Positions 7,084-46,774 are shown, counted from the first letter of the stretch. The stretch is DNA of 49,906 nt from Chloroflexota bacterium (GCA_022566795.1 JADFIF010000004.1:1-49906), one strand, 5' to 3'. Translations and numbers: made by a program. The notes: generated by a model from the letters alone, not told the origin.

Positions 7084-7200
7084 CCAGCGGTTAGCAATTC
7101 TCTCCAGTAAAAACGTATGCCAGGCTACTAAACCTCCAAAAACCCTCCTCCTACAAAAGCAGGAGGCCCCTGAGATGAGCACAGAAAAGGCGCTGCAGCG

Positions 7201-7407
7201 ATGAAGCTGACTACGACACTGTTGTTGCTGATAGTGCTAGCAATGCTGCTCATACAGCAGATGCAGCGCGAATCAGAGCCTCAGCTGACAGCAGAGATGA
7301 TCAATACTGTGATACGTGAGAACCCTGAGCAGATACAGCAGATGTGGGAAGCTGCACTGCGCGAAGGAGCTGCACTGATGCGGCAGTACATGGAGGAAGC
7401 ACGATGA
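7201..7407 (+). CDS. small single-pass membrane protein, hypothetical
   Basis: 68 aa with an N-terminal hydrophobic helix (LTTTLLLLIVLAMLLI). There is no SD of its own. The ATG overlaps the stop of a 9-codon upstream ORF (7175..7204), which does have an AGGAGG. Confidence 0.4.
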   Translation: MKLTTTLLLLIVLAMLLIQQMQRESEPQLTAEMINTVIRENPEQIQQMWEAALREGAALMRQYMEEAR

Positions 7408-7784
7408 ACAACCCAGCCAACTACAACGACGGCCTATAGAGAACGCCTCGTCGCTTCAACATGTAGTCATAAAGCCTCTAGCCCAACACGACCAACATCG
7501 GCGAATAGTCTTTCCCAGGTTGGAAGACGCAATGTACCATTTCAAGGGCCTTTACGAGATTGATGTTGAGGCGTCGCGGCGCGAGAGGAAAATCACGTAC
7601 AACCGCATTGCGACTAGAGTTCAAACGTATCAGGCTCTTTGAGAGAGCCCTTTGGACCTTTGCGATCGCTGGGACGACTGTGACCTGCAGATCGGGTGGG
7701 TAAGCTGAGAACTATCGCAGTTAGCCACGGCTCAGCGGTGGGCATCCTGTGGCAGACCTAAGTAACAGAACTTAGGAGAAAGAC

Positions 7785-8231
7785 ATGAACTGGTATCTCG
7801 AAGTCCTGAAGAAGTACGCGGTATTTAACGGGAGAGCTAGGCGGAAAGAGTATTGGTACTTTTTCTTGTTCAGCTCCATCATCGGATGGGTTCTTTTAGT
7901 CATCGACGCCGTGATCGGCACTTTCAGCGCCGAGGCCGGTATTGGCCTGTTGAGTGGCATCTACACAATGGCCGTCCTGATTCCACACATAGGCGTGTTG
8001 GTGCGGCGGCTTCATGACACTGACCGCAGCGGTTGGTGGTGGCTTATCGGCCTGATTCCGCTCATCGGCATTGTAGTCCTTTTTGTCTTTTTGGTGCAGG
8101 ACAGCAAGCCCGGTGAAAACCGATATGGTTCCAACCCAAAGAGTGCAGCAGCTTTCGACAGGCTCAGGGCAGGCTCCCCAGACCCCGTGCCAGGGGGCTC
8201 AGCCCCTCTGGACTCCCGGGCGGGGTCTTGA
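7785..8231 (+). CDS. DUF805 (YhaH/YhaI-like) inner-membrane protein with a repeat-derived C-terminal tail
   Basis: Motifs are RARRKEYWYFFLF...RRLHDTDRSGWWWLIGLIPLIG...GENRYGSNP. An AGGAGAAAG SD is present. The last ~25 codons (AFDRLRAGSPDPVPGGSAPLDSRAGS) are read from repeat family R. Confidence 0.85.
   Translation: MNWYLEVLKKYAVFNGRARRKEYWYFFLFSSIIGWVLLVIDAVIGTFSAEAGIGLLSGIYTMAVLIPHIGVLVRRLHDTDRSGWWWLIGLIPLIGIVVLFVFLVQDSKPGENRYGSNPKSAAAFDRLRAGSPDPVPGGSAPLDSRAGS
8154..8231 (+). repeat. intergenic repeat family R, copy a (hairpin-containing, ~80 nt)
   Basis: TTCGACAGGCTCAGGGCAGGCTCCCCAGACCCCGTGCCAGGGGGCTCAGCCCCTCTGGACTCCCGGGCGGGG aligns position-for-position with 44847..44925. Parts of it recur at 17664..17771, 22091..22157 and 42490..42565. 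Confidence 0.75.
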
Positions 8232-8236
8232 GATAG

Positions 8237-10429
8237 TCACTTGGGCCAGTTTCGAGCTCGCACCACCTTGACGCCGCGGTCCGCGATCACCGACACCCTG
8301 GTCCGGCCGCCACGACGGGAGTAGGCCAGGTCCACGGTGCTATCGCCCACTCGAAGGCCTCGAATCTCTACCTCGCCAAGCCAGTGCGGCAGCCGCGGCC
8401 GAACTATTCTGAGCTCGTTTTTGGTCGCATCAGGCACCAGCCCCAATATGGCCTGCAACAGGAGTGGAATCGTACCCGCCGCCCAGGCCTGAGGCCGGCA
8501 GGCGACAGGGTAGCGCACCGGCACTCCATGCGCCGTCCTCGGCGCCCCCGAGAACAGCTCCGGAAGGCGGTAGTAGTCGAACGCTCGGCTGGAGTCGTAC
8601 ATCGCCGTTGCCAGCTCCTCGAGCTCCTGTTCGAATCCGTGGCGTTTGAGGCCCATGCCGATCAGCGAGTTGTCGTGCGGCCAGATGCTGCCCAGATGAT
8701 ACCCGAGCGGGTTGTAGCGGGCCGAGCCGCTGCTCAGGGTCCGGATACCCCATCCGGAGAACATGTCGTTGGCGAACATCCTCGTCGCTACGCTGCCGGC
8801 GTGCTTTCCATCGACGATTCCGGTCCAGAGGCACTGGCCCGGGTTCGACGAGATGGCGGAGGCTTGTTCCCCGTCGGCTCCCAACGCCATTGCGAAGTAG
8901 CCCTCCTCCTGGACCCAATAGTCCGCGTTGAAGGCTTCTTTCAGCGCTGCCGCTTTGCGGCGCAACTGTGTCCCGAGCTCGCCATTTCCCAGCAATGCCT
9001 GAATCCGAGCCAGGCCTAGATAGGCTGCGTAAACGTAACCCTGCACCTCCGCCAGAGCGATGGGCGCTCTCGCCAGTGTTCCGTCCCCGTTGACGATACC
9101 GTCGCGAGAGTCCTTCCAGCCCTGATTCTGGAGACCCTTTGTCGAGCGCTTGGCGTAGGTGAGGTAGCGACCTCCGCCCCATCCAACGCGATTCTCGATC
9201 CAGTCCAGCGCCATCATAAGATTGGGCTCGAGCTCCCTTACGAGCTCCAAGTCGCCGGTCCACGACAGATACTCCGCCGCCAGCATCAGGAATAGGGGAG
9301 TGGCGTCGACGGAGCCGTAGTAGGGCGACATTGGTATCTCGCCCAGCGCGGCCATCTCACCCACCCTGCGCTCGTGGAGGATCTTACCCGGCTCCTCGTC
9401 GCGCCAATCGTCGACCTTGCTCCCCTGCAAGCGGGCCAGGACACGAAGCGAATCTCTGGCTATCTCGGGGTTGAACGCCAGCATCTGAAAAGACGTGATG
9501 AGGCTGTCCCTGCCAAAGAGGCTGCTGAACCACGGGGTTCCGGCCGCGATGAAGTCGCCATCCTCTCCAGCCACCGACAGAAGCCGGATATCGTCCAAAG
9601 ACCTCTGCAGTATGGCGTTGAAGAACTCGTTGTCCGTGGAGACCTGTGTGCAGGAGGCGAGCCAGTTCCGATGGGCTTGATCCAGGCTCTCGAAGGCTTC
9701 GTCAATCGGCTCGTCGGCGGGATCGTCGTCGACGGCTACCGTGAAGCTCAAGCTCTGGCTTTCGCGGTGGCCAAGGGTGATGGCGAAGAGGGCGCCATGC
9801 TCCGAGACATTCTCCGGGCGCTGCGAAAACCTGAATGCCGTCTTCCTCAGCACGCCGTCCAAACCCTCGTAGGAGAAGAGGACCCGCGTTTCGTCGACGA
9901 GAGGCGGCAGTAGGTTCCCTCTCCGCGGACGCTTCTCTCCCCTGAACTCGAAGATGTCCAAAAAGTCGGCAGCGAACTCCAGGCGAAGGTGGACCGTGAC
10001 CGGGAAGACGTTGAAATTCGTGATCTGAACCGTCTCGTGCAACGACTTGTCGATGACGCGACGCCGCATGATCTCTAGCGTCTCTTTGGGAATCTCGCGC
10101 CCGGAGGCGACGGTCATCGGAGGATTGGTAAGGTGGTGTTCAGACGAGAACCCCAGCTCCGCCGTCGAGAGGAGTACGGTAGGTCTGACGTCGCCGAAAG
10201 ACAGGTCGTAGACGGATAGGTATCGCGTGTCGCCCTTGTATAGTCCGTACCCCTGGTCTTCGCCCGGGGGCAGGTTGCCCTCGGCGTTCGCCATCATGAA
10301 GAGGCCGCCCTCTTTGATGACGATGGCGTCCCTAATGTCTGCGACAGTTACGGCCTCGCCTTGCGAGAAGAGTTCGTCTCGCTCGGGGAGCCGGATGCTT
10401 TGCCCGTGACCGTTAGCTTCTAATCGCAT
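8237..10429 (-). CDS. amylo-alpha-1,6-glucosidase / glycogen-debranching-enzyme-like protein (GDE_N + GDE_C)
   Basis: 730 aa. The block IAAGTPWFSSLFGRDSLITSFQML and the (alpha/alpha)6-barrel-like C-terminal half are typical of the bacterial/archaeal GDE_C family. Confidence 0.8.
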   Translation of the reverse strand: MRLEANGHGQSIRLPERDELFSQGEAVTVADIRDAIVIKEGGLFMMANAEGNLPPGEDQGYGLYKGDTRYLSVYDLSFGDVRPTVLLSTAELGFSSEHHLTNPPMTVASGREIPKETLEIMRRRVIDKSLHETVQITNFNVFPVTVHLRLEFAADFLDIFEFRGEKRPRRGNLLPPLVDETRVLFSYEGLDGVLRKTAFRFSQRPENVSEHGALFAITLGHRESQSLSFTVAVDDDPADEPIDEAFESLDQAHRNWLASCTQVSTDNEFFNAILQRSLDDIRLLSVAGEDGDFIAAGTPWFSSLFGRDSLITSFQMLAFNPEIARDSLRVLARLQGSKVDDWRDEEPGKILHERRVGEMAALGEIPMSPYYGSVDATPLFLMLAAEYLSWTGDLELVRELEPNLMMALDWIENRVGWGGGRYLTYAKRSTKGLQNQGWKDSRDGIVNGDGTLARAPIALAEVQGYVYAAYLGLARIQALLGNGELGTQLRRKAAALKEAFNADYWVQEEGYFAMALGADGEQASAISSNPGQCLWTGIVDGKHAGSVATRMFANDMFSGWGIRTLSSGSARYNPLGYHLGSIWPHDNSLIGMGLKRHGFEQELEELATAMYDSSRAFDYYRLPELFSGAPRTAHGVPVRYPVACRPQAWAAGTIPLLLQAILGLVPDATKNELRIVRPRLPHWLGEVEIRGLRVGDSTVDLAYSRRGGRTRVSVIADRGVKVVRARNWPK

Positions 10430-10444
10430 GGCTCCTGGCCGCGC

Positions 10445-11209
10445 TCAACCGCCCACATGAGGCTCAGAAACGCTCTTCTGATTCTGCAAGAGTCCAGTGG
10501 ACGACCCCTGGGCGAGGTCGGCGTCTGGCGCGAGGGGCAGCGGTGGGACCACCCGCAGCTCGTTCACGACGTCTGTGACCGATGGCATCCAATGCGCCAT
10601 CTCCTCGACGGCGACTCTGTGATGCTCATGGGCTACCTCGCCGTGCAGCCGAACCGTACCCCGGTCGAAAACAACTCCAATCGCCGCTGGATTCAAGCCC
10701 AGGTCCTGCGCTACCGCCCGGGCGATTTCTTCAGGGACGTCACGCCGTCTCGGGCCCTCTTCGATGAGGACCTGGATCTCGTTGGTCACTCCCCTCACAC
10801 CGGCGGCTGCCCATACCTCGTTCTCTACGGCGCACCTCTCAGCGGCCGTTCGGGCCAGGCCACGCAGGTGTACGCAGCCGATGGTTACCTCGACGGAGAA
10901 CTGCGTCTCGTCGATAATCGTGCTCTTCGCGAGGGCTGTGCGAAGCCGCATCCTAAGCGTGACATCGTCGACCGCGACCATAGGGGCAACCCTGAGCCTG
11001 TTGACGACTTCACTGACACCACACGCCGTCAGAGCGACCTCTTCAATCGTTCGCTTGTGCATCACATTGGGAACGGAGCCCTCCAGGACAGCCACGCGCT
11101 CGCGGACCCGTACCGCGAGTTCGACGCAGTCGAGGAGCCCTCGTTCTGCCAGGCGCTCCTTAATATCGCGCGCGGCCTCTAAATTCCGTACCTGATTGAT
11201 TTGGATCAC
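10445..11209 (-). CDS. triple BON-domain protein (OsmY-like)
   Basis: Three repeats of the BON pattern are present (…VRERVAVLEGSVPN.. / VTIGCVHLRGLART.. / FDRGTVRLHGEVAH.. each followed by ..V.GV..V.N.L.V). I prefer the GTG start at 11209, which has a GGAGGTG SD 6 nt upstream. The track start ATG 11254 is the alternative. Confidence 0.7.
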   Translation of the reverse strand: MIQINQVRNLEAARDIKERLAERGLLDCVELAVRVRERVAVLEGSVPNVMHKRTIEEVALTACGVSEVVNRLRVAPMVAVDDVTLRMRLRTALAKSTIIDETQFSVEVTIGCVHLRGLARTAAERCAVENEVWAAAGVRGVTNEIQVLIEEGPRRRDVPEEIARAVAQDLGLNPAAIGVVFDRGTVRLHGEVAHEHHRVAVEEMAHWMPSVTDVVNELRVVPPLPLAPDADLAQGSSTGLLQNQKSVSEPHVGG

Positions 11210-24442: not shown

Positions 24443-26125
24443 TCATTGACCCCTGTCAGGAGCTGAGGACGGACCGGAATCGTCGGACTGCTCAGGGCTG
24501 CCGAACCTCTGTCCCATGACGCCCTTGAGGAGCTGATCGAACTGCGTCGAGGCGCCGGCGAGGGCAGTGAAGTCTGTCCCGCTCATCACCATCAGCTCGA
24601 CAGCGGTCGATGCCCTGGCCGAGGCCGAGTGGCGGCCACCTCGGAGCAGCGACCTCTCGCCGAAGAAGTCTCCGGGGCCAAGCTCTGCTACCTTAGTCTC
24701 CACGCCGTCTGTTAGGGACACGATCTGGACGCGTCCCTCGAGCACAATGTAGAGATTTCGGGCGGGCCCACCCTCTCGGAACACCGTCTCTCCCGCGTCA
24801 TAGTGCGCCCTGGACACGCCTTGGCTTCTGGCGATGTCGAGCCGGACGATATCCCGGTGGAACAGCAGCTCAAGCGTCCAGTCGCTCACAACCCTTAGCT
24901 TGCGCTCGAGCCGCGGCAGCTGCAAGAGGTAGTAGGTACGGTACAGAAACCAGGCCATGAGGCCCTCTATCTTGAGCCCTGCCACGTCCGCGGCCGCGGA
25001 GAACCTGCCGAGCGGAACGAAGACCCCAAGGCTTCTGTAGGAGAACGTTCGGAGAGGCTCCCCTTTGATCGCGGCAAGGATGTTCCGGGCTACGTGCCTC
25101 CCCTCCCTCAACGCGTGCTGCGCGGTGGGCGGCGCGGTCCCGCCGGTGCGGACATCGGGGACGGCTGCGCAGTCCCCAGCGGCCCAGATCCCGTCGCTGC
25201 CCGGTACTGCCAGGGTTTCGTCCACCACCAATCGCCCTTTGCGATCGCGGCTGCCCGGCACCGTCTCCAGCAGCCGGTTGGGCGACGAACCCATGGCCGC
25301 CACTACAGTCCCGGTTGCGATCTCCTGGCCATCGCCCAGGACCGCGCTCTGGACGGTGGCGCCCTTTATACCGGTGTTGAGACGGATCTCGATGCCTCTA
25401 CGTTCCATCACTCGGTGGCTGAAGGCTGCCTGCTTCTCGCTCAGCTCCGGCAGAATCCTGCTCGACCGCTGCAAGAGAACGACCCTGACATCGCCGGGGG
25501 ATACGTTTGGATAGTCCCGCGCCGCCTCTCTTACGAAGGAGTTGATCTCCGCTGCCACCTCGACTCCGTTGTAGCCACCACCCACGACGACGAACGTGAG
25601 CAGCTCGGCCTTCTCAGCGGCATCGTCCTCGACCTGCGCCCTTTCGATGACGCCGATCAGGTGGTTGCGCAGCGCGAAGGCGTCTCCCAGCGTCTTCAAA
25701 GGAAAGGCGTGCTCGGACATCCCCGGGACCATCGACAGGTCGGTGCTGACGCCCACGGCCACCAGCAGGTGATCGTAGGGAATACTGTCGTAGTGCACGT
25801 GTCTGCCGGAGTAGCGGACTACAACGGTGCTGGTGGCCGCGTCAACAGCCTCGATCTCGGCCTGATAGAAGCGTGTATGCCGCAGCAGTCGGCGAATCGG
25901 GTTCACGATGTGTGGAGGCTCGATGCTGCCCGACACAACCTCGGACAGCATGGGCTGAAAAAGGAAAAAGTTATCCTGGCTCACCATGGCGAGCTCGATG
26001 AGGCCCTTTCGCGCGGCCTTCTCCAGCTTGAGGGCGGCATAGACACCGGCGTAACCTCCGCCAAGAATCACGACCCGGGGCGGGCGCTGATCGCTCGGTC
26101 TCTCTTTTGCAGGTGCGCCAGACAC
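24443..26125 (-). CDS. type II NADH dehydrogenase (NDH-2)-like flavoprotein fused to a C-terminal cyclic-nucleotide-binding domain
   Basis: Two dinucleotide folds are present (VVILGGGYAGV and FVVVGGGYNGVE), and WAAGDCA. The C-terminal ~120 aa read YDAGETVFREGGPARNLYIVLEGRV...GPGDFFGERSLLRGGRHSASARA, a cNMP-binding fold. The GTG start has an AAGGAGG SD. Confidence 0.85.
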   Translation of the reverse strand: MSGAPAKERPSDQRPPRVVILGGGYAGVYAALKLEKAARKGLIELAMVSQDNFFLFQPMLSEVVSGSIEPPHIVNPIRRLLRHTRFYQAEIEAVDAATSTVVVRYSGRHVHYDSIPYDHLLVAVGVSTDLSMVPGMSEHAFPLKTLGDAFALRNHLIGVIERAQVEDDAAEKAELLTFVVVGGGYNGVEVAAEINSFVREAARDYPNVSPGDVRVVLLQRSSRILPELSEKQAAFSHRVMERRGIEIRLNTGIKGATVQSAVLGDGQEIATGTVVAAMGSSPNRLLETVPGSRDRKGRLVVDETLAVPGSDGIWAAGDCAAVPDVRTGGTAPPTAQHALREGRHVARNILAAIKGEPLRTFSYRSLGVFVPLGRFSAAADVAGLKIEGLMAWFLYRTYYLLQLPRLERKLRVVSDWTLELLFHRDIVRLDIARSQGVSRAHYDAGETVFREGGPARNLYIVLEGRVQIVSLTDGVETKVAELGPGDFFGERSLLRGGRHSASARASTAVELMVMSGTDFTALAGASTQFDQLLKGVMGQRFGSPEQSDDSGPSSAPDRGQ

Positions 26126-33526: not shown

Positions 33527-34195
33527 TCAGCCGGGACCTTCTCCCGTGATCTTCTGCACGGCCTGCTCCAGCTGTTCCTTGGTGATAATACCACTGTGGT
33601 TGACAAGCTCGTCTCCATTCGAGTTCACCACGACGGTGGTAGGTAGCAGGCTAACGCCGTACCTTCGCGTCAACACCCCGTCCTCATCTGTGGCTATCGG
33701 ATACTTCACCCCCACTCGATTGACAAACCCTGAGACCGCCAGCCTGGGTGTGGAGACCGCAACCCCAATGAGGGCCACGCTTTCTTTGTGTTCCTGCCAG
33801 AAGCGTTCCAGCTCTGGCATCTCTTCGACGCAAGGAGCACACCACGACGCCCAGAAGTTCAAGACTACTACCTCGGTTCCGAAGTCGGACAGTTGCCTGG
33901 TGGACCCATCGAACATTGAGATAGGCGGGGGTGTGGCGTCCATGCCGGAGCAGGATACGACGATGAGCATGACGAAGATCGTGGCCGCCGCTCTTACGCC
34001 GTCGGGCTTGTGGTGAGGCCCCGGGCGGCGTCCGATATCAAGCGAGGCATCGGGAGTTCCCTCCGGGTTGGAGAGGGCGGCGCGGGTGGGGGAGGTGAGT
34101 CGCTCCAAGGGCTTCACGAGCGACTGGAACGCCGTCTCAGGCCTTGGTAGGTGGCAACGCGCGACCGCATCGGGCTCCCCCGTGCCACCGGACAT
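33527..34195 (-). CDS. TlpA/ResA-like thioredoxin-fold thiol:disulfide oxidoreductase, probable lipoprotein; start unresolved
   Basis: VVVLNFWASWCAPCVEEMPELE contains the CxxC motif. A signal-like AAATIFVMLIVVSCSG lies upstream, but no well-placed in-frame start precedes it. An out-of-frame ATG with a good GGAGGG SD sits about 34060, so an indel is possible. The 5' end given here is arbitrary. Confidence 0.65.
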   Translation of the reverse strand: MSGGTGEPDAVARCHLPRPETAFQSLVKPLERLTSPTRAALSNPEGTPDASLDIGRRPGPHHKPDGVRAAATIFVMLIVVSCSGMDATPPPISMFDGSTRQLSDFGTEVVVLNFWASWCAPCVEEMPELERFWQEHKESVALIGVAVSTPRLAVSGFVNRVGVKYPIATDEDGVLTRRYGVSLLPTTVVVNSNGDELVNHSGIITKEQLEQAVQKITGEGPG

Positions 34196-34482
34196 CAAGC
34201 CAAGTGCATCCCTGAAGCGTAAGTTCATATCCGTGCCGATGTTTTCGAGCTGGCAGCTTGCGCAGCGCACCGTAAGGCTCCGTAGGCCAGTGGGGTCGAG
34301 TGTAGCAGCAGGGTAGGGGGCGGTCAATCGGCGCCACGAATCTGAGCCGCCCTTAGTGTGTCGCGGCGCCGATACCGACCACGTGGCTCGAACTCGCTTC
34401 TCCCTACGCCATCGCCACGGTCGAATGACTCCGCTCGCCCGACATGCTAACGTGTGCGAGACGACATCGCGCATGACCAGCG

Positions 34483-36604: not shown

Positions 36605-37608
36605 ATGCCTGAGGAGGTGACCCTCGTGCCCAGACCGCGAGTGCTTGTATGCCGTGAGATCTTTCAGGAGGCCTACGAGACTATAGAGGCCGAGGCGGAT
36701 GCAGAAATGTGGACAGAATATCTGCCCATGTCACGGAGCGTGCTTCTGGAGAAGATAAAGGGGGTCGATGGGGTCCTCAGCATGGTGACCGAGCGAGTAG
36801 ACGCCGAGCTGATGGATTCCGCGGGGTCGCAGCTTAGAGTCATCAGCCAGTTCGGGGTTGGGTTCGATAACATTGACGTCGCCGAGGCCACAAGCAGGGA
36901 GATAGCCGTAGGAAACACCCCGGACGTGCTGACGCAGACCACGGCCGACGCCGCCTTTGCGCTGCTGATGGCGGCGGCAAGGCGGATCGTCGAGGGTGCG
37001 AGGGCGGTCCGCGAGGGGAAGTGGGAGACCTGGCATCCGCTTCATTACCTGGGACAAGATGTCCACGGCAGCACACTCGGGATCATGGGCATGGGGCGAA
37101 TAGGAGGGGCAATGGCCCGCCGGGCGCGGGGGTTCGACATGGACGTGCTCTACACCGACATTGCGCGTCGAAAGGACATGGAGGCCGAGCTCTCGCTAAG
37201 GTATGTGGACCAGGACACATTGCTGAGAGAGTCAGACTTCGTGAGCCTGCACACGGTCTTGGGTGATGCTACCTACCATCTTATCGGCGAGCGGGAGCTG
37301 TCCATGATGAAGCCGACCGCGGTGCTGATCAACGCCTCCCGCGGGCCGGTGGTTGACCCCATGGCCCTCTACCAGGCCCTCAGCGCGGGAGAGATCGCGG
37401 CGGCCGCGCTGGACGTCACCGAGCCCGAGCCTATTCTCATGACGACCCGCTTCTGACCCTCGACAACTGCGTGATAGTGCCGCACATCGCTAGTGCCAGC
37501 GTGAAGACGCGGGCCGAGATGTCACGAATCGCCGCCCAGAACCTTCTCGACGGAGTCAGGGGAGAGAGACCTCGGTACTGCGTCAATCCAGAGGTGTACG
37601 AGCGCTGA
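36605..37608 (+). pseudogene. D-isomer-specific 2-hydroxyacid dehydrogenase (GhrB/glyoxylate reductase-like) with a frame disruption near 37439
   Basis: Frame 1 runs to [16 protein letters not shown] (stop at 37454..37456). From 37441 a second frame reads [27 protein letters not shown]...NPEVYER* to 37608. That second frame carries the conserved PH(I/L)(A/G)SA catalytic-His motif. One nucleotide appears to be missing. Confidence 0.8.
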
Positions 37609-38640: not shown

Positions 38641-38700
38641 TGGTGCCCAGGAAGGGATTCGAACCCCCACTCCCTTTCGGGAAGCGGATTTTAAGTCCGC
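38641..38700 (-). pseudogene. 3' fragment of tRNA-Leu(UAA): anticodon stem to CCA, no 5' half (att-like duplicate)
   Basis: TGGTGCCCAGGAAGGGATTCGAACCCCCACTCCCTTTCGGGAAGCGGATTTTAAGTCCGC matches 42203..42262 at 57 of 60 positions. The sequence beyond 38700 has no D-arm or 5' acceptor strand. Confidence 0.75.
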
Positions 38701-38856
38701 CCATGCCCATCTCACCCCGAGATGCCACATCCCATGCGTGGCGTAGGGTAGGGGGCCACGGGCTTTCAATTGTCTACACCTGCCATCCTGTGCTGCGTCA
38801 TATCAACACGTTCGGGGGGCAATTTGGGGGCAATTCTCCTCTGCACTTAGCTGCCG

Positions 38857-42202: not shown

Positions 42203-42288
42203 TGGTGCCCAGGGAGGGATTCGAACCCACACTCCCTTGCGGGAAGCGGATTTTAAGTCCGCTGCGTCTGCCGTTCCGCCACCTGGGC
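42203..42288 (-). tRNA. tRNA-Leu (anticodon UAA), class II with a long variable arm and encoded CCA
   Basis: The reverse complement reads GCCCAGG-UG-GCGGAACGGCAGACGC-A-GCGGA-CUUAAAA-UCCGC-UUCCCGCAAGGGAGU-GUGGG-UUCGAAU-CCCUC-CCUGGGC-ACCA. The cloverleaf folds with one U.U mismatch in the T stem. Confidence 0.88.
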
Positions 42289-45940: not shown

Positions 45941-46522
45941 TCAGGACTTCTTCTCTACTACGTAGGGGTAGTTCATCCCTGATTTGTAGGGGCTATCCGG
46001 CGCCGCATCCAGGCGCATGGTGATATTGAACTTGTTGCCCCAGTTGAAGATCGAGGCGGCGAAGACCATCTCCACGATTTCCTCGTCGTTGAAATGCGTT
46101 CGGATTTCCGCGAAAAACTCGTCGTCTATTTCGTTAGGGTCAGCCGCCATCTTCTCTGCCAGCTTCACAGCCACGGCCTCACGCGGCGTAAGCCCGGACT
46201 CGTCAATGTGGCCGATGATGCACTCCTCTTTGGGCTCCACCTCGCCGCGAACCGCGGCGGTGCGAACGGTGCTTCAATAGGTGCAGCGGTTAATCTCACC
46301 GGTCTTGATGCGCATCATCTCCAGCAGGTACGGTTCAACAATGCCCTTGCCGAAGAATTCGACAAAAGCCGGTACGATGGCTTTCAAGAGCCCGGGCCGG
46401 CGGGCGATCACACCAAACATCGCTTCGTCCACCCACCAGCCTTCCTTGCCATCCTTGAGCAGTTGATTGATCTCCGGATCATCCGACTCGCCAATCCGGA
46501 CCGGGGTGATTCGCGTTGCCAT
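45941..46522 (-). CDS. carboxymuconolactone decarboxylase / AhpD-like family protein, predicted selenoprotein (in-frame UGA at 46276..46274)
   Basis: Track ORFs 46274..46576 and 45941..46240 share one frame. Joined, they read ...MRIKTGEINRCTY-U-STVRTAAVRGEVEPKEECIIGHIDESGLTPREAVAVKLAEKM...IFNWGNKFN, a collinear CMD-domain pattern with TGA at the second Cys of CxxC. ATG 46522 has a GAGGAGG SD. Confidence 0.75.
46238..46262 (-). promoter_or_regulatory. SECIS-like hairpin downstream of the in-frame UGA
   Basis: The RNA reads CACC-GCCGCG-GUU-CGCGGC-(GA)-GGUG. It starts 11 nt after the UGA, and the G/U-containing apical loop is about 24 nt from the UGA. Confidence 0.5.
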
Positions 46523-46774
46523 GTTTACCTCCTCAAGCACATACCAGATCCGCCCTGAATTGAACAATCCGCCCACTCTCTCCCCGGCCTCGGAGGAGAG
46601 TCGGCCGCAATTCGGTCATCGGTCGGTCATAGGCACACTCCTCTTCCGACCTCTAGAACCTCGGTGGAAAACACATTAGAACGACTGCCAACAAACCCTG
46701 CCACCGGCCATACTAGCAGTCGCACTTACCCGTATCAATCTGTATGGGCCCAAGTGGCTCTTCTCAGGGCCACT

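Follow-up and report, generated by a model that had tools for sequence, protein, structure and literature searches.

Selenoproteins of the AhpD-like type, in which selenocysteine (Sec) takes the second position of a CxxU motif, have been known since 2005, when 27 sequences of COG2128 were reported as new selenoproteins in Sargasso Sea data (PMC1088965). In the Global Ocean Sampling survey, the family 'AhpD-like 1' comprised 299 selenoproteins and 902 Cys homologs and was among the most abundant families (PMC2398784), and AhpD-like selenoproteins are also documented in genome surveys and reviews (PMC13188914, PMC9312934). Chloroflexota have been reported among the selenoprotein-rich bacteria (PMC13326102). 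Here we describe a candidate member of this group in a 49,906-nt stretch of DNA from a Chloroflexota bacterium (GCA_022566795.1, JADFIF010000004.1:1-49906), hereafter the window. An original prediction, made from this sequence alone, had proposed a selenoprotein gene at the locus and had pointed out that Sec-containing AhpD-like proteins were already described, as the CxxU members in PMC1088965 and PMC2398784 confirm. The analysis suggests, with a probability of about 0.9, that an AhpD-like gene that truly encodes Sec occupies minus-strand positions 46522..45941. This reading rests on a single reading frame, a column of Cys or Sec codons among orthologs, a covarying hairpin found only in TGA forms, selection on the sequence past the TGA, and the AhpD fold.

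Two open reading frames (ORFs) on the minus strand, 46274..46576 and 45941..46240, are in a common frame, and the gap between them consists of a TGA (46276..46274) and 11 sense codons. Reading through 46522..45941 gave 193 codons, among which the only internal stop is the one in ...KTGEINRCTY*STVRTAAVRGEV..., followed by 110 stop-free codons. The elements of the locus are as follows.

45941..46522, minus strand: complete coding sequence of the predicted AhpD-like selenoprotein, 193 sense codons including Sec83, with the terminal stop TGA at 45943..45941
46528..46534, minus strand: Shine-Dalgarno-like GAGGAGG, 5 nt upstream of the ATG at 46522-46520, read from the sequence
46283..46285, minus strand: TGC codon for Cys80, first residue of the C-x-x-U redox motif, invariant in the clade alignment
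46274..46276, minus strand: in-frame TGA, codon 83, predicted selenocysteine, in the TGA/Cys column and aligned with the CxxC motif's second Cys in AhpD-like proteins of solved structure
46238..46262, minus strand: candidate hairpin of the bacterial selenocysteine insertion sequence (SECIS) type, inside the coding sequence, from folding and ortholog covariation

The start codon is the ATG at 46522-46520 rather than the GTG at 46576; GAGGAGG lies upstream with a 5-nt spacer, and the N-termini of all orthologs align there as M-[AST]-T-R-I. The translation thus bore out the original prediction of two same-frame ORFs split only by the TGA and 11 sense codons; the read-through frame stood, and the start that it had placed at 46576 moved to ATG 46522. 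TGA is used twice in this one gene, internally and as its terminator. The window protein is collinear over its full length with 195-residue homologs, at 52-61% identity, and the Chloroflexota orthologs are full-length collinear at 78-83% identity.

An ortholog scan with one genome per GTDB species (species representatives) yielded 80 related loci. The codon in the column of the internal TGA was TGA in 57 loci and TGC or TGT in the other 23, and no other codon occurred there, so that the UGA aligns with the Cys of non-selenoprotein homologs. When the joined protein was used as the query of a database search, some 90 full-length homologs of about 195 residues were recovered, at 54-62% identity, all of which carry Cys at the TGA column within the motif N-x-C-x-Y-C. 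The same search returned at least 30 clusters of proteins of about 110 residues (P0091-P0120), which cover only the C-terminal 52% and all of which begin with a Met exactly one residue past the TGA column. These short proteins are truncated C-terminal halves of TGA-form genes and are gene-caller artefacts; some of the entries are named 'alkylhydroperoxidase family enzyme'. Both the proposal that the TGA sits where the second Cys of the motif belongs and the expectation that gene callers would split the gene were therefore substantiated.

The mRNA can form a hairpin, CACCGCCGCG-GUU-CGCGGCGAGGUG (46262..46238), that begins 11 nt past the UGA, has a loop beginning 21 nt past the UGA, and has a minimum free energy of -14.3 kcal/mol. 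The lower stem pairs 46262-46260 with 46240-46238, and the upper stem pairs 46259-46253 with 46249-46243 around the apical loop GUU at 46252-46250. The pair 46253/46249, found in the window and in the Chloroflexota ortholog L001, is additional to the family consensus, which has a 6-bp upper stem and a 5-nt loop, lies 14-31 nt after the TGA, and gives the loop GGUUC (46253-46249) in the window. The published model of the bacterial SECIS (bSECIS) specifies a loop of 3-9 nt, an upper stem of 4-16 bp, a distance of 16-37 nt from UGA to loop, and a minimum free energy of -7.5 kcal/mol or lower, with a G within the first two loop positions and a loop that mostly reads N-G-[G/U]-N-N (PMC13188914). 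The window element satisfies every published constraint, with a loop of 3-5 nt, an upper stem of 6-7 bp, a spacing of 20-21 nt, an energy of -14.3 kcal/mol, and a loop in which a G at one of the first two positions precedes a U.

When the window hairpin was compared with shuffled sequences, the 25-nt element gave z = -2.2, with 5 of 200 shuffles as good, and a 51-nt segment gave z = -1.6. The stability of a single sequence proves little here, because the DNA is GC-rich and z is near 0 for some true orthologs. Covariation was scored on an alignment of the 51 nt from the TGA, gap-free in 58 TGA-form sequences, for a structure of 8 pairs (columns 16-23 with 29-38). The result showed that 96.7% of the cells were paired and that 4 of the 8 pairs had double compensatory changes, in 41 cells. 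The pair types were GC/AU at 19-33, CG/UA/GC at 20-32, CG/UA at 21-31 and CG/UG/GC at 18-34. In 500 shuffles, neither the paired fraction nor the covariation score of the real alignment was ever equalled, and shifting the partner by 1-3 columns lowered pairing to 14-60%. RNAalifold, with the alignment of the 58 TGA forms as its sole input, returned the same six-pair upper stem and 5-nt loop. The mean hairpin energy across the family was -10.6 kcal/mol. The loop was NGUNN in all 58 TGA forms, G25 and U26 being invariant; at columns 24-28 the window has GGUUC, and other sequences have CGUGC, CGUGA, GGUCA or GGUCC. When the same structure was imposed on the 23 Cys forms, 56.8% of cells were paired and there was no covariation, and all six upper-stem pairs were present in 56 of the 58 TGA forms vs none of the 23 Cys forms. 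It is the comparison of orthologs, and not the single fold, that is decisive for the significance of the predicted hairpin. On all three points that the original prediction had raised about this element, namely a hairpin downstream of the UGA, the geometry of a bacterial SECIS and conservation in orthologs that carry TGA, the results agree with it: the hairpin is present, obeys the published rules, and is conserved with compensatory changes in TGA forms and gone from Cys forms.

Because the hairpin is coding, compensatory changes in its stem alter the protein. The residues at codons 7 and 11 past the TGA covary, as Ala/Gly, Thr/Gly, Val/Asp, Ala(GCU)/Ser(AGC) and Gly/Ala, the covarying arms being alignment columns 19-21 and 31-33 (46258..46256 and 46246..46244 in the window). 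In this alignment, the RNA pairing visibly shapes the protein sequence that overlaps it.

The sequence past the TGA is open and conserved. The ratio of nonsynonymous to synonymous substitution rates (dN/dS) after the TGA was 0.08-0.24 against four orthologs of the Chloroflexota clade (L001-L004), implying that this part is translated; for codons 1-82 it was 0.05-0.13 in three ortholog comparisons, with dS saturated against L004. By these ratios, both halves of the predicted gene are under purifying selection. The post-TGA part was 52-64% identical to Cys forms and fragments.

According to record titles, TGA forms occur in Chloroflexota/Anaerolineae (L001-L003, to which the unclassified L004 is added; their identity of 78-83% fits the Chloroflexota origin of the window) and in Acidimicrobiia, Acidobacteriota/Thermoanaerobaculia, Gemmatimonadales, Candidatus Entotheonella, Polyangia and a few Proteobacteria. 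The isolate Haloechinothrix halophila YIM 93223 also carries one. Cys forms came chiefly from Alphaproteobacteria and Thiotrichaceae. The TGA forms made up one clade of a neighbour-joining tree, and a single Cys form was nested within it. This sequence, from Pseudonocardia sulfidoxydans NBRC 16205 (L066, 10250), has TGC inside an otherwise all-TGA clade and has lost the hairpin, and it looks like a reversion from Sec to Cys. The homologs P0089, from Microbacterium, and P0090 resemble this case.

The window protein carries the motif E68-x11-C80-T-Y-U83-x3-R87, in which U83 is predicted. E68, 12 residues upstream of C80, is invariant in the clade alignment, as is C80, and the clade also has an invariant Arg87, 4 residues past Sec83. 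The best NCBIfam match was TIGR01926 'peroxidase-related enzyme' (E = 9.6e-17, profile positions 14-173 of 178). A Pfam search with the joined protein, in which the TGA was read as Cys, gave no family at E <= 0.01, PF02627 (CMD) included; some homologs have a precomputed PF02627 match. Homologs in JGI are named 'alkylhydroperoxidase family enzyme' or 'uncharacterized peroxidase-related enzyme'. A clade profile searched against the PDB matched PA0269/AhpD of Pseudomonas aeruginosa (7e-14), with CxxC aligned to C80/U83, as well as AhpD of Deinococcus radiodurans (1.2e-7), the Bmp8 debrominase (1.7e-7) and several 'peroxidase-related' structures; Cys80 aligns with the first Cys of CxxC in PA0269, D. 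radiodurans AhpD and Bmp8. AlphaFold was applied to the Cys homolog P0001, whose identity to the window protein is 59-61%. The model was all-helical, with a mean predicted local distance difference test score (pLDDT) of 86 and a predicted template-modelling (TM) score of 0.82, and it matched 6k40, 6ohi/6ohj, 2prr, 3c1l and 2ijc with TM scores of 0.68-0.78 and a probability of 1.00. These results indicate an all-alpha AhpD-like fold for the window protein, by way of its homolog. The AhpD/CMD domain that had been proposed thus held for the AhpD fold, from the profile and the homolog model, and failed for the Pfam CMD model at E <= 0.01. Taken together, the sequence comparisons place the predicted protein in the AhpD-like superfamily and outside the curated thresholds of PF02627 and TIGR01926, as a diverged subfamily.

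The window has a G+C content of 62.4%, and its predicted genes end in TAG, TGA and TAA in roughly 19, 18 and 10 cases, respectively. The genes for transketolase, CinA, a DUF805 protein and an FmdB-type zinc ribbon are terminated by TGA where the Pfam models end. As TGA ends ordinary genes at the expected positions, the standard genetic code applies, in agreement with the earlier view of local recoding rather than a variant code, which had taken TGA to be the normal stop of tkt, DUF805, fmdB and other genes.

The decoding apparatus was found beside the TGA form of the cultured isolate H. halophila YIM 93223 (locus L035, NZ_KI632509.1), where the features are as follows.

10001-10561, plus strand: TGA-form ortholog
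between the tRNA-Sec and TGA-form genes, minus strand: TetR-family regulator, divergent from the TGA-form gene
9042-9136, minus strand: tRNA-Sec, found by ARAGORN and by Rfam RF01852 (80.9 bits)
7191-8957, minus strand: selB (TIGR00475, 288 bits vs a cut-off of 242)

The TGA-form ortholog lies 0.9 kb from the tRNA-Sec gene, and selB and tRNA-Sec are both within 3 kb of it. At least one genome with this TGA form therefore carries the physically linked decoding apparatus, and the AhpD-like protein may be a principal client of the Sec system in H. halophila. An IS256 transposase gene lies just past selB in this locus, and helD lies downstream.

On the Sec reading, 46522..45941 would be one gene for a 193-residue all-alpha protein of the AhpD/carboxymuconolactone-decarboxylase fold with the redox centre Cys80-Thr-Tyr-Sec83. 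Its UGA codon 83 would be read as selenocysteine by the established bacterial pathway. The hairpin about 12-36 nt past the UGA, with G-U in its apical loop, would act as a bacterial SECIS: its loop would bind SelB-GTP-Sec-tRNA(Sec) and so bring the complex to the ribosome when the UGA arrives in the A site. The protein is most likely a selenol/thiol oxidoreductase, as its family membership suggests. By the chemistry of the family, Sec83 would act as the nucleophile on an oxidised substrate, for example a peroxide, sulfenic acid or disulfide, and Cys80 would be its resolving partner, giving a selenenylsulfide that a cellular thiol reductant would recycle. We infer actual Sec insertion in this organism from the pathway, and the chemistry of the protein from its family.

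Several observations weigh against a Sec-encoding gene. No tRNA-Sec, selB or other sel gene was found within the 50-kb window by ARAGORN and Rfam-type scans, by tblastn or among the annotated genes. A tblastn search with SelB of H. halophila revealed no further selB in the window or in the ortholog-locus DNA, and one with an approximate Escherichia coli SelD query gave no match in the window or the 80 loci, which is a weak negative. A scan for in-frame TGA codons with coding signal on both sides gave no second selenoprotein candidate in the window, all other frames of this kind having the look of antisense frames or the ends of genes. At least one other gene in the window has an apparent frameshift, so the assembly does contain errors. 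Taken alone, the window hairpin exceeds shuffled GC-rich sequence in stability by a narrow margin (z of -1.6 to -2.2), and the protein passes no curated family cut-off, with 61.3 vs 81.8 bits for TIGR01926 and no match to Pfam CMD. The possibility that a Cys-type AhpD-like gene acquired the TGA by nonsense mutation, or shows it through an error of base calling or assembly, which would make the locus a pseudogene or an artefact, gains from the fact that TGC becomes TGA by one substitution and from the apparent 1-nt frameshift near 37430 in the 2-hydroxyacid dehydrogenase gene of the same assembly. However, TGA stands in the same column in 57 independently assembled species genomes from several phyla, the hairpin covaries in TGA forms and is missing from Cys forms, and the downstream half is open and under purifying selection, which makes an error or a pseudogene highly improbable.

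Nor does a real stop at the TGA, giving an 82-residue N-terminal fragment and a separate 99-residue protein from GTG 46240, find much room, although many public entries of 110 residues do start at a Met right past the TGA. The codon past the TGA is Ser, Gln or Asn, and no start codon, in the window and in many orthologs; the 11-codon stretch from TGA to GTG, which holds the hairpin, is conserved at the protein level (T-V-R-T-A-A-V-R-G); and inspection of the sequence revealed no ribosome-binding site for the second piece. Neither half would be a complete AhpD fold, with the CxxC helix and the E-x11 relay severed, and we consider two genes extremely unlikely. Recoding of the UGA to a residue other than Sec (Trp or Cys through a near-cognate or suppressor tRNA, Cys on tRNA-Sec under selenium limitation, or a variant code) would be in keeping with the lack of Sec machinery within the window, and in other systems the Sec pathway is known to place Cys at Sec-UGA codons. 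It is nevertheless very unlikely: a reassigned code is excluded by the many well-supported window genes that TGA ends at family-model positions, the hairpin fits the SelB-dependent SECIS model, and one ortholog is physically linked to selB and tRNA-Sec. As to function, the Sec clade (E-x11-C-x-Y-U-x3-R), which spans Chloroflexota, Acidimicrobiia, Acidobacteriota, Gemmatimonadota, Entotheonella, Polyangia and some Proteobacteria, could be a functionally distinct AhpD-fold selenoenzyme and not the partner of a peroxidase, such as a Bmp8-like Sec-dependent reductive dehalogenase (compare the deiodinases). This seems unlikely, the link to Bmp8 being a distant fold and profile match only, of a kind common to other AhpD-like proteins. 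The names of several host lineages, such as Entotheonella and Spongiisociaceae, suggest sponge symbionts. In sum, a pseudogene was rejected on the cross-species TGA and hairpin, two separate genes on the conserved bridge and a variant genetic code on the normal TGA stops, and a Sec-encoding gene is the reading retained here.

The gene stands alone, with thiE and the gene for an FmdB-type zinc ribbon on one side and a translin-like gene and an H+-pyrophosphatase gene on the other. A promoter scan gave one promoter-like site, 46738-46710 on the minus strand, vs 0.6 expected by chance, and a terminator scan found none. A leader of about 190 nt may lie between the promoter-like site and the ATG (46523..46738, minus strand); it contains an inverted repeat, ACUCUCC...GGAGAGU, at about 46601-46575, with no match to an Rfam family. 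Two further redox-related genes of the window are not adjacent to the selenoprotein gene.

24443..26125, minus strand: pyridine-nucleotide-disulfide oxidoreductase fused to a cyclic-nucleotide-binding domain
33527..34474, minus strand: 315-residue Redoxin/AhpC-TSA/thioredoxin-like protein

Elsewhere in the window, the D-2-hydroxyacid dehydrogenase gene (36605..37608, plus strand) has its apparent frameshift near 37430-37456, with the canonical C-terminus ...EVYER* in another frame. One missing base at about 37431-37433 would rejoin the frames, and either an assembly indel or a real pseudogene may be the cause. ARAGORN called two tRNA-Leu genes on the minus strand, 38641..38722 and 42203..42288, both with anticodon TAA. 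The Rfam tRNA model at its gathering threshold supported 42203..42288 only, and 38641..38722 may be a degenerate copy or a false call.

Annotation of this locus should give one selenoprotein gene and not two hypothetical ORFs. Routine gene callers cut such genes in two, and the subfamily is uncaptured by current curated models: at least 30 clusters in the database consist of the C-terminal halves of orthologs with TGA, and the clade passes no NCBIfam or Pfam cut-off, so that mis-annotation is widespread. A dedicated family model that includes the SECIS would mend the records of dozens of species. With this gene, the Chloroflexota genome is a likely user of selenium, and the family offers a clean case of a predicted SECIS hairpin that constrains the protein sequence overlapping it.

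Among known systems, the AhpD-like selenoprotein family (COG2128/YciW, TIGR01926) shares with the window protein the CxxU motif with Sec in second position, the AhpD fold, widespread Cys homologs and a bSECIS past the UGA, whereas the window protein scores below the TIGR01926 cut-off (61.3 vs 81.8 bits). Two curated families of the AhpD superfamily contain Sec as well as Cys members, NF053654 'YciW-related (seleno)protein' and NF041238 'alkylhydroperoxidase-related (seleno)protein', the latter with CFYUT. Residues 4-172 of the window protein align to positions 3-172 of the 179 in the NF053654 profile (E = 4.7e-15), but with 55.8 vs 310 bits for NF053654 and 18.2 vs 175 bits for NF041238 it is a member of neither.

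The closest solved relatives are PA0269/AhpD (PDB 2ijc, 2o4d, 7xw1) and D. radiodurans AhpD (6k40), with fold TM scores of 0.72-0.78. Their E-x11-C-x-x-C segment aligns residue for residue with the window protein, which has its predicted Sec where they have Cys. PA0269 further differs in having a His 4 residues past the second Cys, where the clade has Arg, and in being without the N-terminal approximately 55 residues. A His at that position belongs to the classical AhpD signature. The canonical form of that signature, E-x11-C-x-x-C-x3-H, is absent from the window protein, in which E68-x11-C80-x-x-U83 is present and Arg87 is invariant. Structures of Mycobacterium tuberculosis AhpD matched the P0001 model with TM scores of only 0.39-0.41, and linkage to ahpC is lacking, the nearest Redoxin/AhpC-TSA gene (33527-34474) being 11.5 kb off. 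With Arg87 in place of His and no ahpC linkage, the protein is not a canonical AhpD and is therefore filed in the CxxU 'AhpD-like' selenoprotein group.

The Bmp8 debrominase of marine Pseudoalteromonas (PDB 6ohi, 6ohj) was the top fold match (TM 0.72), with its CxxC aligned and with a near-full-length alignment (residues 2-170 to 9-177) that is rare among the solved relatives. Its identity is only 21% and its profile E-value 1.7e-7, the data give no hint of halogenated substrates, and the match is a lead only. The predicted hairpin resembles the bSECIS of the E. coli fdhF type and the general bSECIS model (PMC13188914, Figure 2 legend) in being a coding hairpin directly past the UGA with an apical G and then U, and its spacing, loop size, stem length and energy are all inside the limits of that model; it differs from the fdhF SECIS in its unrelated sequence, its loop of 3-5 nt and a 2-nt bulge on the 3' side between the upper and lower stems. 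The gene is thus a new, well-supported member of the known CxxU AhpD-like selenoproteins, and no new mechanism is involved.

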